Assembly: GCA_034780895.1 (NCBI GenBank)
Contig: JAUZTB010000087.1
Span: forward strand, 87,203,441-87,267,440
DNA from: Rhynchobatus australiae
Taxonomy: Eukaryota
DNA: 64,000 nucleotides
Direction: 5' to 3'
Position numbers and translations under genes: made by a program. Below, in pieces: positions 12,801 to 57,400 of the stretch (the stretch's first letter is position 1; every line of letters begins with the position of its first letter). Under the pieces are notes generated by a model, which saw only the letters and a program-made list of their open reading frames with translations, did no database searches and had not been told where the DNA came from.

Positions 12801-14066
12801 ATCCACCAGCCCATTGATTTGAATGGGGATTGTAGGGGTGTACAGAGGACAAGTACATTCTTTTCAGTGATTATTTTGTTTTATTTTGAATGATTTTAAG
12901 GATTTTATTTTCAACACTTTTAAAAAGTGTCAGAATATCAGAAACTCTCAAACATTTAAAAACTTTGACAGCATTGGCACATGGCAAAGCTGTGGGCGGA
13001 GCATTGCTGTTTGTCAAAGTCTCACAGAGGGGTTTTGGGAGCAGGGTTTGTTCCGACCTACCTCCTACCCACATAACTCATTTACATTGTCTCACCATTT
13101 AACTTCAGAATCATCTAGTTGGGCATTCCAGATCTGGAGAAGGAAAATTCAGGGCAATTTTGGGTGTTGCTAGCAGGAAGCATGTCCTACCTTAGGAACT
13201 CAGGCCAATTATTCTCATTCCAGATGGCAAAAACTGGATGGCTCTAGAATGTTACCTGTCTGCAGTGAACTGGCCAGCACTCCTTTTCCTGGCAATGACT
13301 GCCAGTCTGCAAGGGTGTGGCAATTAGACTTTCACACAAATTGAAAACCAGACCCATTGGACCACACCTTTAATAAGTATGGAAGGAGTTGTTGGCGCCA
13401 GGGCCTCAACAGTTTCTGCAATAGTTGTTGGGAACTCCACCCTTAATCATCAGTCTTATCTTTTAAGTTTTTATTGCTGCTCCTTTATTATTATTTTCCT
13501 GTTCAACACTTCAAAATATAGGTATTAGGCTGCATGCAATTTTTGTTTCATTTTGACCCCAGTCGTGCTTTCTAGTTGCCCTCTCCTCTGTCCCACCACC
13601 AAATATCCTTCAATTGAGTGCAAGCTTTACAAGTGCCATGCAATAACCTTCCAGGAACTGAAGTCTACTAATCTGAGGCAGTTACAATTTTCTCTCACAC
13701 TTAAGTGCTGCAAGATTCTTTTAAGCCTCTGATTTTGTAACATTCAGCATTATCAAATTGATATGGAAATCAATCAAAACAAAATCATAAGGTTTTAAAT
13801 ACATCTAATCTGAAACGTAGTACCCAAATAATTTGTAAAAGGCAGTCTGACCAACCCACATCAAAGATAGCAGAGTGCAAGTTAACGCCAGCACTGACTG
13901 GCAGTTTAAACATTAACAATCCACTACAATAAAAAACATTCTCCCCGCCCCTTTTAATATTCCCATTCAAATTTATACTATCAATTTATAAACAGCATGA
14001 TTTAATACAATATTTCCAAATGATTCATTGAAGAAAAGAGTGATTAGACTGTTTTTTCTTACTCAC

Positions 14067-14274
14067 CGGTCTGATTAAGTCATCGCTATGATCAGCATTC
14101 TTTCATCAGTATTTCCTCATGGCACCACGCTGCTGCTGTTAGCTGGAAGTCCCCTCCATTACACTACTGCTTTTTTTTGGGAAAAAAAATCTTTTAAGCA
14201 AATCTTGTTACGGGATGCCACTTCTGTCAACCGCTGACACTTGAGCTCTTTAGAGAAAGTCGCTATTTCACCCC
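14067..14274 (-). other. Non-coding 5' leader exon (or 3' part of first exon), 208 nt, uORF-rich
   Basis: Acceptor actttctgtttctttttgttgaacAG at 14275 and strong donor CCG|GTGAGTAAG at 14066. Five AUGs, all closing within the exon. Confidence 0.75.
14075..14159 (-). other. Mini-uORF cassette: MEGTSS* (14139-14159), MRKY* (14106-14120), MKEC* (14092-14106), MLIIAMT* (14075-14098)
   Basis: Direct translation of the minus strand. MRKY*/MKEC* share a TGATG stop-start overlap. Confidence 0.6.
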
Positions 14275-14477
14275 CTGTTCAACAAAAAGAAACAGAAAGT
14301 ACATGAGCAGAAAAAAAAACTCAGACCACACATGTCGCTGCTGGTGTTTTAAAGAGTATTTCTTCTTCCTTTCACAAGAGAATACAATTTAACGTGCCGT
14401 TTAAAGCGCGTTACACTCGGTAGTCCAGGTCCGAGGCGCTTCAGGTGCCCACTTATTGTTGTGGCCAGTCGCAGTGA

Positions 14478-14513
14478 TCATGCTGCTTGTTGCCACATGA
14501 CTGTCTCACTCAT
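14478..14513 (-). CDS. Candidate conserved-peptide uORF MSETVMWQQAA* (PTP4A/PRL-type, inferred)
   Basis: ATG AGT GAG ACA GTC ATG TGG CAA CAA GCA GCA TGA. First AUG after the predicted TSS, with A at -3 (caaacATG). C-terminal motif shared with the uORF at 35204-35293. Confidence 0.65.
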   Translation of the reverse strand: MSETVMWQQAA

Positions 14514-14569
14514 GTTTGTTGGTGCTTGCGAGAGCCGGAGAGAAGCCGCTGGTAGCAGCGGAGGAGGGC

Positions 14570-14665
14570 TCCAGGCAGCTCAGAACATAGACGCGGCTGC
14601 TCTTATAGAGGAAGCGCCAAACCCCGCCGGCCAATGGCTGACTCTCACAATCACATGACCAACCC
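14570..14665 (-). promoter_or_regulatory. Proximal Pol II promoter
   Basis: TATAAGA at 14607-14601 (minus), GC box GGCGGGG 14622-14628, CCAAT 14631-14635, M/E-box GTCATGTGA 14651-14659. Local CpG enrichment 14390-14780. Predicted TSS ~14577. Confidence 0.75.
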
Positions 14666-26489: not shown

Positions 26490-27950
26490 ATCTGTTTTTT
26501 GAGGCTGCATTGAAGATCATGGTGGTGGAGGTAGAAAGTTACAGAGATATCCTGTGTACACAGCGGCCAAGAGAGGCATTCAGAGCCGATATAAAGGAGG
26601 TCATGCCAGACTGAAAGCCCGGGGACCTGGACGTGCAGCTGCAGAAAGTTCGACAACTTTACCTGAGTAGATAAGGTCAAATGCCATAACCAACTTATCT
26701 GCTGCAGCATTTCCTGCTCAAGGCATTGCATGTATCAGTCAACAACAAATTCATACACTGCATTCACTTGCATCTCTTCTTCACTACGCACTACTACAAC
26801 CTTTGCGCTGAATGCCTTTCATATACTACTAGGTATTCAACCACAAGCAGGCATGATACCCAAACACAAATATACTGACGCACTTCCTTCACTCTTGCAT
26901 AACCAGAAACAGCAGAGGATTCCCTTGTAGTTCAATCACAATAGGGTTGTTACCAGACTTTACTGAAACCCTGTTAAAGAAATCCATACCAAGTTGCCAT
27001 AGGGCTTTGAGAAGAGCTTGGAGCTCATTTATCCATCGAGATACTGCTTGACAACATCAGTGGCACAACCATGGATCCAACTGTGACATGGCACCTCACG
27101 ACTTCCACTGCAGCAAGTGGGTGCTGCCCAAGGGCTGCGTNNNNNNNNNNGCGTGCTGCCATGAACGCCTAGCCTGCTGATGAGCGAGGTCCTCTTGCAG
27201 CTTCACAAGCTAAACTCAGTCTGCTGGCATCACTTGCTGTGAACTTCAGAGCACGAACCGATTTTGAGACGCTGGAGCAGTTGGGCAACTTGTCCCAAAC
27301 AGGTTGTTGCTGAGCTGCCTCCTACGGCAGTGGCAGTAACTTAGTAGTGGTTGGAGATGCTGTCTGCTCTCAGGAATCCATCATCTGGCCCCTGTCACAT
27401 GCTCTCTGTGGACAGCTGCCGCCAAGCTGAGATGGTGCTGCACGCTGCCGGTCCTGGTGCCAGACCATCAGCAACTACCTCCACGAGGTGGGCAGCACCG
27501 AGCAGGACAGCAATAGCGAAAGGCACACAGACTCCAGGTGCAGAAACTGACTTTGCCATGCGTTGAAAACATTGTCCAGAGTCTTTAATGTTATAATGGC
27601 TTTTATTTTTGCATTGTGGCCAAGTAAATGCTGTGCTGATCAGATTTATTAGATGGACAGAGTATGAGACAGCTGGTGTTTGGGGAACTGAGTCACACGT
27701 TTAGATTGGTCCTTTGTGCAGCAAGGCAGAAGCTTTGGTTTGCCTTCCCTCTTCCGCTCTTGTTCTTCCTCCATCGTCTCCTCCTCATTGCCTGAGCTGG
27801 TTGCTATGGAGCTGCTGCAAGGGTTTCTCCTCAGGGTGGCAAGGTTGTGCAGCACGCAGCAACCAACTGTAATCATATCACCCACTTTGTCAACTGCTGC
27901 AAGGATCCTCCAGAGTGGTTAATTCTGGATGTAACCAGCCACCGGCCTGC
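26490..27950. mobile_element. Decayed PIF/Harbinger DNA transposon: Myb/SANT-like gene (+) and transposase C-terminus (-)
   Basis: Plus strand 26495-26670 reads FEAALKIMVVEVESYRDIL...TWTCSCRKFDNFT (Myb/SANT-like). Minus ORF 27649-27885 reads ITVGCCVLHNLA...EEETMEEEQE (HARBI1-like ACCxLHN motif plus acidic tail). Confidence 0.7.
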
Positions 27951-36687: not shown

Positions 36688-38260
36688 ATCAGAATCAGAT
36701 TTATGATCACATACATTTGACATGAAATTTGTTGTTTTGCAGCAGCGGTACAGTGCAAAGGCATAAAAATCTATAAATTACAAAAATAGTGCCCAAAAAA
36801 AGGAATAATGAGGCAGTGTTCATGACTTCATGGATCGTTCAGAAATCTAATGGCGGAAGGGAAGAAGCTGCTCCTGAATCGTTGAGTGTGGGTCTTCAGG
36901 CTCCTGTACCTCCTCCCTGATGGTAGTAGAGAAGGGGGCATGTCCCGGGTGGTGAGAGTCCTTTATGACAGATGCCATCTTCTTTAGGCACTGCCTCTTG
37001 GAGATGCCCTCACTGGTGTGAAGTGTTGTGCTAATGATGGAGCTGGCTGAGTCAAAAGCCCTCTGCAGCCTCTTGCGATCCTGTGCATCGGAGGCCTTGT
37101 ACCAGGCTGTGATGCAACCAGTCAGGATGGTCTCCATCGTACATCAATGGAAATTTGTAAGGGTCTTTGGTGACATACCAAATCTCCTCAAACTCCTAAT
37201 GAAGCAGAGCTGCTGGTGTGCCTTCTTTGTGATTGCGTCAATTTGTCAGGCCCAGGATAGATCCTCAGAGATGTTGACACCCAGGAACTTGAAGCTGCTC
37301 ACCCTTTCCACTGCTGATGCCTCAACGAGGATTGGTGTGTGTCCTCCCGACTTTCCCTTCCTGAAGTCCACAATCAATTCCTTGGTCTTGCTGATGTTGA
37401 GTGTGAGGTTGTTGTTGCAATGTCACTGAACCAGCCGATCTATCTCACTCCTGTACACCTCCTCATCGCCATCTGAGATTCTACCAACAACATTAGTGCC
37501 ATCGGCGAATTTATAGATGGTGTTTGAGCTGTGCTTAGCCACACAGTCATGAGTGTCGAGAGAGTAGAGCAGTGGGCTAAGCACGCATCCTTGAGGTGCG
37601 CCTGTGTTGATTATCAGCGAGGAGGAGATGTTACTATTGATCTGCACTGACTGTGGTCTCCCGATAAGAAAGTTGAGGATCCAGTTGCAGAGGCAGGTAC
37701 AGAGGCCCAGGTTTTGAAGCTTGTTGATTAATACTGAGGGAATGATAGTGTTAACCGCCAAGCTGTAATTGATAAACAGTAGCCTGACGTGTGTCTTGCG
37801 GTTATCAAGCTGCTCCAAATTGGAGTGAAACGCCAATGAGATTGTGTTTGCTGCAGACCTGTTGTGGCAGTAGATCAATTGCAGTGGGTCCAGGTCCTTG
37901 CTCAGGCAGGAGTTAATTCTAGCCATAACCAACCTCTCGAAGCACTTCATCACAGTAGATGTAAGTCCTACTGGGCGATAGTCATTGAGGCAGTTCACCC
38001 TGCTCTTCTTGGGCACTGGAATAATTGCTGCCCTCTTGAAGCAGGTGGGAACCTCCAACTGCAGCAGTGAGAGGTTGAAGATGTCCTTGAACACTGCAGC
38101 CAGTTGGTCGGCACAGATGTTCAGCACCCTGCTAGGTACACTGCCGTGGCCTGACATCTTGCGAGGGTTCACCCTCTTAAAGGATGTTCTGACATCAGCC
38201 TCTGAGACAGAGATCACAGGGTCATTGGATGCTGTGGGGATTCACATAGGTGTAGTGCTG
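36688..38260 (-). mobile_element. Rex1/Babar LINE, 5'-truncated, RT largely readable
   Basis: ORF 37423-38217 CLNDYRPVGLTSTVMKCFERLV...GAPQGCVLSPLLYSL...YKFADGT. Downstream ILTGCITAWY. (aatctg)n-like tail near 36690. Confidence 0.93.
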
Positions 38261-54078: not shown

Positions 54079-54419
54079 GGATGACGCTGAAAATAACTTG
54101 TACACAATGTACTTGGTGAAAAAAGCTGCTCAACTGCGAATGTTGTTTACTAAACGGTTGCATAGTTTGACCAGTGCCATTTTCATACTCTGGAGCTTCC
54201 TATTCCACTCCTTGGCTGCCCCTTCATCTTCCACTTCTGTAAGTTACAACTCATCAAACAGTTCAAAGTCTGTGTCCCATCTTGTACTCTCCATGTTGAC
54301 CATCACCCCTGTACTCAGTGACTTTCACCAGATTCCCATTCAGTAACATTTCAAATTTTACTTTAATATCCTTATACTTAATTCCCTTCCAGGCCCTGGC
54401 CTTTCTTGCCTCTTACCTC

Positions 54420-57400
54420 CTACCGAAAAGACAGGCAGGTGGGCAGGGGGGTGGGGTGGCTCTGCTGGTAAAAAATGACATCAAATCCTTAGCAAGAAGT
54501 GACATAGGAACAGAAGATGTAGAATCCTTGTGGGTAGAATTAAGAAACTGTAATGATAAAAAGACCCTGATGGGAATTATATACAGGCCTCCAAATAGTA
54601 GCCAGGATGTGGGGTACAAATTACAACAGGAGATGGAACAGGCATGTAAAAAGGGCAATGTTACAGTGGTCATGGGGGATTCAATATGCAGGTAGATTGG
54701 GAAAATCAGGTTGGCACTGGAACCCAAGAGAAGGAATTTGTAGAATGCCCACGAGATGGCTTTTTAGAGTAGCTTGTGGTTGAGGTCACTAGGGAAAAGG
54801 CAATTCTGGATTTGGTGTTGTGCAATGAACCAGATTTGATTAGGGAGTTTAAGGTAAAGGAACCCTCAAGAGGCAGTGATCATAATATGATAGAATTCAC
54901 CCTGCAGTTTGAGAGGGAGAAGCTAAAATCAGATGTATTGGCATTACAGCTGAGTAAAGGTAACTACAGCGGCATGAGAGAGGAGCTAGCCAAAGCTGAT
55001 AGGAAGGAGACCCCAGCGGGGATGATGGCAGAGCAGCAATGGCAGGAGTTTCTGGGAGTAATTCAGAAGACGCAGGATCAGTTCATCCCAAAGAAGCAGC
55101 AGCATTCTAAAGGGAAGATGAGGCGACTGTAGCTGACAAGGGAAGTCAAAGACAGTATAAAAGCAGAAGAGAGGGCATACAATGTTGCAAAAATTAGTGG
55201 GAAGCCAGAGGATTGGGAGCTTTTAAAAACCAACAGAAGGTAACTAAAAAAGCAATAAGGGGAGAAAAGATGAAATATGAAGGCAAGCTAGCCAATAATA
55301 TAAAAGAGGATAACAAAAGCTTTTTCAGATATATAAAGAGTAAAAGAGAGGCAAGAGTGGACATTGGACTGCTGGAAATGACACTGGAGAGATAGTAATG
55401 GGGAACAAAGAAATGGCGGACGAACTGACTAAGTATTTTGTGTCAGTCTTCACTGTGGAAGACACCAGCAACATGCCAGATATTCAAGAGAATCAGTGGG
55501 CAGAATTGAGTGTAGTTGCTATTACTAAGCAGAAGGTGCTTGGCAAGCTGAAAGGTTTGAAGGTAGGTAAGTCACCTGGACCAGATGGACTACACCCCAG
55601 GGTTCTGAAAAAAGGTAGCTGAAGAGATTGTGAAGGCATTAGTAGTGAGAGTTCAAGAATCACTAGAGTCAGGATTGGTTCCGGAGGACTGGAAAATCAC
55701 AAATGTCACTCTACTCTTTAAGAAGGTAGGGAGGCAAATGACAAGAAATTATAGGCCAGTTAGCCTGACTTTAGTGGTTGGTAAGATGTTAGAGTCCATT
55801 ATTANNNNNNNNNNNNNNNNNNNNNNNNNNNNNNNNNNNNNNNNNNNNNNNNNNNNNNNNNNNNNNNNNNNNNNNNNNNNNNNNNNNNNNNNNNNNNNNN
55901 NNNNTCTGGATTTGGTGTTGTGCAATGAACCAGATTTGATTAGGGAGTTTAAGGTAAAGGAACCTTGAGGAAGCAGTGATCATATTATAGAATTCACCCT
56001 GCAGTTTGAGAGGGAGAAGATAAAATTGGATGTATCAGCATTACAGTTGAGTAAAGGTAACTACAGAGGCATGAGAGATGAACTGGCCAAAGTTGATTGG
56101 AAGCAGACCCAAGCAGGGATGACAGTAGAGCAGCAATGCAAGGAGTTTCTGGGAGTAATTCGGAGGACACAGGATCATTTTATCCCAAAGAAGAAGAAAC
56201 GTTCTAAAGGGAAGATGAGGCAACTGTGGCTGAAGAGGAAAGTCAAAGACAGCATAAAAGCAAAAGAGAGGGCATATAATGTTGCTAAGATTAGCAGGAA
56301 GTTAGAGGATTGGGAAACTTTTAGAAACCAACAGAAAGCTACTAATAAAGCAATAAGGGGAAAAAAGATGAAATATGAAGATGCTAGCCAATAATATAAA
56401 AGAGGATACCAAAAATTTATTCAGATATAAAAAGAGTAAAAGAGAGGCAAGTGTGGACATCAGACTGCTGGAAAATGATGCAGGAGAGGTAGTAATGGGG
56501 AACAAAGAAATGGTGGATGAAATGAATAAATATTTTGTGTCAGTCTTCACTGTGGAAAACACCAGCAATGTGCCAGAAATTTGAGAGAGTCAGGGGACAG
56601 AAGTGAGTGTGGTTGCTATTACTAAGGAGAAGGTGCTTGGGAAGCTGAAAGGTCTGAAGGCAGATAAATCACCTGGACTGGATGGGCTACATCCCAGGGT
56701 TCTGAAAGAGGGAGCAGAAGAGATTGAGGAGGCATTAGAAATGATCTTTCAAGAATCACTAGTCAGGACTAGATCCAGAGATTAGAAANNNNNNNNNNTC
56801 GGTAGTGAGGAAGGCAAATTCAATGTTAACATTCATTTCGAGAGGACTAGAATATAAAAGCAAGAATGTAATGCTGAGGCTCTGTAAGACATTGATCAGA
56901 CCAAATGTCTTACAAATTTGGAGTATTGTGAACAGGTTTGGGCCCTATATCTAAGGAAGGATGTGCTGGCATTGGAGAGGGACCAGAGGTTTACAAGAAT
57001 GATCCCAGAGATGAAAGGGTTAACATAAATACGAGCATTTGATGGCTCTGGGCCTGTACTTGCTGGAGTTTAGAAGGATGAAGGGGGATGTCATGTAAAG
57101 CTTCCAAATATTGAAAGGCCTGGAATAGAGTGGATGTGGAGAGGATGTTTCCAGTAGTGGGAGAGTCTAGGACCAGAAGGCACAGCCTCAAAATAGAAGG
57201 ACGTTCCTTTAGAACCGAGATGAGGAGGAATTTCTTTAGCCAGACGGTGGTGAATCTGTGGAATTCATTGCCACAGAAGGCTGTGGAGGCCAAGTCATTG
57301 GGGATATTTAAAGTGGAGGTATTTAGGTTCTTGATGAGTAAGGGCATCAAAGGTTACAGGGAGAAGGTAGGAGAACAGGGTTGAGAGGGAATAATAAATC

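Follow-up and report, generated by a model that had tools for sequence, protein, structure and literature searches.

The magnesium-sensitive uORF of PRL-1 and PRL-2 (PTP4A1 and PTP4A2) is said to have its primary report in Hardy et al. 2019. According to later papers, the leaders of PRL-1 and PRL-2 carry a uORF that is conserved and causes ribosomes to stall when magnesium is normal; the magnesium response is lost when the coding sequence of this uORF is rearranged (PMC11855589, PMC10083557). The PTP4A1 uORF is also described as repressing in a sequence-dependent way (PMC7530721). As for its size, the translated uORFs of resistant mRNAs, PTP4A1 included, are all given as longer than 20 codons (PMC4383229), and the set from which the PTP4A1 uPEP was drawn was restricted to 20-99 codons (PMC1402274). 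This uPEP is kept down to fish and corresponds to uORF number three in the human leader (PMC3914846). The PTP4A2 uORF has been annotated as coding on the grounds of its conservation and carries an identifier from a Ribo-seq catalogue (PMC13275300), a catalogue that admits only ORFs of at least 16 aa (bioRxiv 10.1101/2021.06.10.447896). The accessible parts of PMC9057581, PMC11347596, PMC8894207, PMC9082881, PMC10659439 and bioRxiv 10.1101/2022.02.10.479744 give neither sequence nor length for a PTP4A uORF, and the PTP4A uORF papers found by text search do not mention the word shark.

Two other systems were used for comparison. In plant AdoMetDC, an overlapping short uORF occludes a longer one, and in mammalian AMD1 the MAGDIS uORF, very short and close to the cap, encodes a peptide by which ribosomes are stalled as they terminate (PMC2811004). 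Against this background we examined an 11-aa ORF in a stretch of DNA of 64,000 nucleotides, the whole of which is called the window here.

A short uORF and its overlap with a longer one

Two reading frames on the same strand are central to the comparison:

14478..14513, minus strand: uORF1, the finding under study, 11 aa, MSETVMWQQAA*, with its AUG at 14513
14401..14481, minus strand: uORF2, 26 aa, MITATGHNNKWAPEAPRTWTTECNAL*, with A at -3

The initial annotation, which names no strand, had reported the 11-aa ORF and an A at -3 of its AUG, and both points were borne out. Translation of the 36 bases gave MSETVMWQQAA* from 14513 to 14478 on the minus strand and no AUG ORF on the plus strand of 14478-14513. 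The start context is acaaac-ATG-A, with A at -3 and with A rather than G at +4, and can be called adequate. uORF1 contains a further in-frame AUG at 14498, whose -3 base is G. On the upstream side a stop closes the frame at a distance of 22 codons, and between this stop and the AUG of uORF1 there is no strong in-frame start, only a CUG in a weak context; an N-terminal extension initiated at a CUG was considered and dropped on account of this poor context.

AUG ORFs of exactly 11 aa number 81 in the window, and 21 of these have A at -3. When the predicted first exon described below was shuffled 2000 times with dinucleotides preserved, A at -3 was found at the first AUG in 27% of the shuffles, and A at -3 together with a frame of 8-15 aa in 7%. 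The amino acid motif proposed in the initial annotation was matched once in the window, by uORF1 only, and in 0 of 100 shuffles. Because the motif had been written around the uORF1 sequence, however, its uniqueness in the window is a circular test.

The UGA stop of uORF1 and the AUG of uORF2 share the four nucleotides AUGA at 14481-14478, and each of the two AUGs is flanked by A at -3 and at +4. The stop of a first ORF overlapped a second AUG in 545 of 4860 shuffles, and in 56 of 4860 the overlap was present, the second ORF was 20 aa or longer and a purine stood at both -3 positions, these criteria having been set after the sequence was seen. Neither uORF2 nor the splice acceptor at 14274 considered below is in the initial annotation.

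As in the tiny/small pair of plant AdoMetDC, the stop of the short uORF here overlaps the start of the longer one. The dimensions are different, the plant pair having a tiny uORF of 2-3 aa, a small one of 48-55 aa and an overlap of usually 1 nt, whereas here the lengths are 11 and 26 aa and the overlap is the 4-nt AUGA. The upstream AUG is also the weaker one in the plant pair (PMC2811004), whereas the two contexts are similar here. The likeness to MAGDIS concerns the class of very short uORFs close to the cap, but MAGDIS has 6 aa and lies 14 nt from the cap (PMC2811004), whereas uORF1 has 11 aa and would lie at about 65 nt, and the two peptides are unrelated by inspection.

A predicted promoter and first exon, and a possible bypassing splice acceptor

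The surroundings of the pair contain the following features:

14600..14660, minus strand: predicted Pol II core promoter, from a motif scan
14658-14651, minus strand: E-box-type TCATGTGA, upstream of the CCAAT box, from the motif scan
14635, minus strand: inverted CCAAT, from the motif scan
14628, minus strand: GC box, from the motif scan
14607, minus strand: TATA-like TATAAGA, from the motif scan, failing the canonical TATA pattern
14067..14578, minus strand: predicted non-coding first exon of about 510 nt, from the uORF map and three-frame translation, its 5' end placed by TATA spacing
14274..14310, minus strand: 3' splice-site candidate with a branch-like CTCAT, a pyrimidine tract and CAG, the first exon base being 14274
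14075..14159, minus strand: cluster of five short uORFs, some of them overlapping, with lengths of 6, 4, 4, 7 and 2 aa, at the exon's 3' end
14058..14069, minus strand: predicted 5' splice donor CCG/GTGAGT, ranking 6 among 3460 minus-strand GT sites, with the intron from 14066

The promoter motifs are found in the right order and orientation, pointing into uORF1, and the TCATGTGA element at 14658 resembles an E-box of the M-box/CLEAR type. The promoter/uORF1 region is the top CpG stretch among 1175 stretches of 300 nt scanned, with 17 CpG versus a median of 2 and with a CpG o/e of 0.76 versus 0.19 for the whole window. The remaining 49 kb of the window showed no comparable promoter upstream of uORF1. 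Transcription was predicted from TATA spacing to start near 14576-14582 (about 14578), and this places the AUG of uORF1 63-69 nt from the start. In the initial annotation it is the first AUG and lies about 65 nt from the predicted transcription start; the distance agrees, but it comes first only in transcripts that begin downstream of 14588. Just upstream of uORF1 there are two other AUGs, at 14588 (a 2-codon ORF) and at 14656 (an AUG followed directly by a stop, within TCATGTGA), and with the start predicted at about 14578 both would therefore fall outside the mRNA.

The predicted first exon contains 10 AUGs against 7.3 +/- 2.0 expected, and 15% of 2000 shuffles reach 10; the AUG density is not clearly above chance. 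Three-frame translation showed that none of the 10 AUG frames in this exon is open through the donor. The arrangement is therefore that of a predicted non-coding first exon with an intron behind it. This intron appears to run for more than 14 kb, to the edge of the window, and Pfam and motif scans of the 14 kb after the donor found no recognisable coding exon. uORF1 is very likely an upstream ORF at the head of a predicted non-coding first exon. The cluster of five uORFs at the other end of the exon includes a TGATG stop-start overlap at 14108.

Splice sites were scored with a rough matrix, and on this matrix the acceptor at 14274 ranks 14 among 4266 minus-strand AG sites. Together with the donor at 14066 it delimits an exon-like unit of 208 nt that has neither uORF1 nor uORF2, and splicing at this acceptor could accordingly drop both uORFs from the transcript. 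With scores of 7.3 and 6.9 bits the two sites form one of the highest-scoring acceptor-donor pairs that the window has on its minus strand, and this speaks for the possibility that uORF1 is incidental and controls nothing, the mRNA entering at the 14274 acceptor or starting further downstream, or the transcript being non-coding. The non-canonical TATA box and the lack of any host CDS found in the window point in the same direction. However, there is no good donor between the predicted start and the acceptor, and therefore use of the acceptor needs a first exon further upstream, of which none was seen. The sole strongly CpG-rich stretch of the window, with its CCAAT, GC and TATA-like boxes, moreover sits just upstream and points into uORF1, with no equal in the remaining 49 kb. 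We consider it improbable that uORF1 is incidental.

The interpretation we prefer, although we hold it with a little less than even confidence, is that uORF1 is a genuine positional uORF at the head of a long first exon with many uORFs, in a vertebrate gene, and acts by its position and not by its peptide. It is favoured because of the context of the ORF, the ordered promoter motifs in the top CpG stretch, the strong donor on the same strand, the lack of any frame open through this donor, and the coupled arrangement of the two uORFs, whose full form arose in 56 of 4860 shuffles. Set against it are the exon AUG density, which 15% of shuffles reach, the 81 window ORFs of the same length, and the acceptor that could bypass the pair. 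That the action of uORF1 is independent of its sequence is our default assumption.

What we observed is the anatomy of the sequence, and transcription start, splicing, translation, reinitiation and occlusion are read from the general scanning model. On this model, many of the scanning 40S subunits would initiate at the uORF1 AUG, which they meet some 65 nt from the cap, while the in-frame AUG at 14498 would capture some of those leaking past the first one. Termination would follow after 11 codons, at the UGA overlapping the uORF2 AUG. Ribosomes that finish uORF1 would be unlikely to begin uORF2, but may resume scanning, the shortness of uORF1 permitting reinitiation, whereas subunits that leak past uORF1 would initiate at uORF2. 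For occlusion of this sort the plant AdoMetDC pair is a precedent (PMC2811004). The pair and the later small uORFs would then hold translation of the main ORF low and make it sensitive to initiation conditions. An ordinary uORF would matter little, because about half of human mRNAs have one (PMC3914846). It is the AUGA-coupled pair with its bypass acceptor that deserves attention, as a case in which the gating of a longer uORF by a short one can be studied.

The RNA of the exon has no significant structure overall. The fold of 14380-14580 gave a z of -0.81, and z was below -2 in 3 of 23 sliding windows. The lowest of the 23, at -3.1, belongs to a hairpin over the pyrimidine tract (14320-14261). 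Rfam gave no match at the gathering cut-off over 9000-64000, and four matches around the exon with E of 1.7-9.4 were judged to be chance.

Candidate genes and relatives of the peptides

According to the initial annotation there was no CDS in the window, and this was supported by a Pfam search in which none of 491 non-repeat frames had a match. These were stop-to-stop frames of at least 42 aa, chosen outside one short stretch and not mostly inside repeats; frames of 40 aa or more number 725 in the window as a whole, and exons under 42 codons or lacking a Pfam domain would escape such a search. As a control, two of five repeat-derived frames did match. The phosphatase motifs of PTP4A had no real match in the six frames of the window, only two chance matches of four letters, and rough exon predictions in the window produced nothing recognisable. 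Any PTP4A CDS would lie beyond the edge of the window. In sequencing runs of other organisms, 14 rows from 6 studies share words with the exon (2 with at least half of them), these being unaligned matches, none of them recorded as RNA, that speak neither for nor against an identity.

The gene had been assigned to the PTP4A/PRL family, and uORF1 proposed as its arrest peptide. uORF1 would then be a conserved ORF whose nascent peptide arrests ribosomes under ample magnesium, PRL being produced once magnesium is low. In human PTP4A genes, several hundred leader bases share an exon with the start codon. The exon at 14067..14578 instead ends in a donor without a CDS, and whereas the published uORF precedes a PTP4A CDS, no linked PTP4A CDS or coding motif is found in the window; both points argue against the proposal, as do the 13 chance matches to the motif described below. 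The known element likewise starts with AUG, belongs to a long vertebrate leader that has several uORFs, and is positioned to repress the main ORF. In favour of the proposal, a long AUG-rich leader suits PTP4A; the resemblance of the peptide itself is put forward by the initial annotation alone. Leaders of PRL-1 and PRL-2 do have the magnesium-sensitive conserved uORF whose coding sequence matters (PMC11855589, PMC10083557, PMC7530721), and conservation of the PTP4A1 uPEP as far as fish (PMC3914846) is also consistent with the proposal.

The length of uORF1 is more difficult to accommodate, since its 11 aa fall short of the more than 20 codons published for PTP4A1 and the at least 16 aa for PTP4A2. 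Two of the three sources of these lengths have cut-offs that hide an 11-aa ORF. Arrest peptides are often conserved at the C-terminus only, and a relative could have a shorter N-terminus. Length therefore weakens the PTP4A claim without refuting it. The identification of uORF1 as the PTP4A arrest peptide is unproven and somewhat weakened by this length, and we regard it as unlikely; that the gene is a PTP4A, a view taken over largely from the initial annotation, seems to us possible but somewhat doubtful. uORF1 would work like a repressive leader uORF and is not assignable to the PTP4A uORF family. If it were the arrest peptide, it would join the orthologues of an element already published, extending the range to (probably cartilaginous) fish with a mechanism already known; such an orthologue would be useful for alignment and unsurprising.

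The published lengths would be satisfied by uORF2 with its 26 aa, which in this respect is a better fit than uORF1. Perhaps, then, the gene is a PTP4A in which uORF2 is the published arrest peptide and uORF1 a short shield, so that ribosomes translating uORF1 pass over uORF2 and reinitiate, whereas those leaking past uORF1 stall in uORF2. The A at -3 and the overlap with the uORF1 stop are consistent with such a role, and shielding of this type is the logic reported for the plant AdoMetDC pair (PMC2811004). uORF2 also starts from the third AUG, and in the human leader the PTP4A1 uPEP comes third among the uORFs (PMC3914846), which may be a coincidence. However, the upstream AUG is weaker in the plant model and has here the same A at -3 as the second, and searches for uORF2 in Pfam, PDB, the Atlas, the exact protein look-up and paper text were all blank, each of them a weak test for 26 aa. 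We therefore hold this arrangement to be rather unlikely.

A two-step switch can be proposed by analogy, in which a permissive uORF1 shields a conserved 26-aa arrest uORF2 and splicing at the 14274 acceptor drops the switch altogether, in a vertebrate gene that is possibly a PTP4A. This is offered as speculation and is improbable. If it were true in PTP4A, reading of the magnesium signal would consist in part of a selection between two start codons in overlapping frames, and the sensor would be older than the split between cartilaginous and bony vertebrates.

Searches with the uORF frames brought no relatives to light. The 33-aa frame containing uORF1 had no match among 1.84 billion representatives, and for a 101-aa antisense frame there were nine candidates, none at an E of 10 or better. 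A 21-aa uORF was absent from the exact protein look-up, as was uORF2. Pfam at E 10 matched none of four queries, PDB gave no match for either of two queries, and peptide words from uORF1 or uORF2 were not printed in the paper texts searched. The best Atlas score, 0.80 for uORF2, came with low recognition and was taken as noise. Such blank searches are weak evidence because peptides this short are seldom annotated.

The motif of the initial annotation was matched at 13 metagenome loci, 11 of them ending in a stop. These were rejected as homologues and attributed to chance, as none of their flanks is similar to the exon (best E 0.41). Six of the 13 have one identical sequence (L003, L004, L006, L008, L009 and L011), with flanks unrelated to the window. 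The motif was found in no viral contig, and a stricter version of it in no prokaryote genome.

Repeats and setting of the window

The window looks like methylated vertebrate DNA, with its low overall CpG o/e of 0.19, remnants of LINE-type reverse transcriptase and no recognised host exon, and its repeats are, we assume, typical of sharks and rays. The LINE remnants lie at 37426-38241 (minus strand) and 54300-54692 (plus strand), with RVT_1 at E 4e-17 and a weak match to an endonuclease that stays under the Pfam cut-off. Sequence repeated inside the window amounts to about 8.5 kb. The repeated LINE stretches at 54805-55686 and 55905-56780 flank a gap of 100 N and have the same peptide text on either side, possibly as the result of an assembly duplication. 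The stretch at 27000-27900 is comparatively rich in GC (0.51), is unrepeated in the window and contains frames of 50-101 aa without a Pfam match; it is perhaps an old mobile element.
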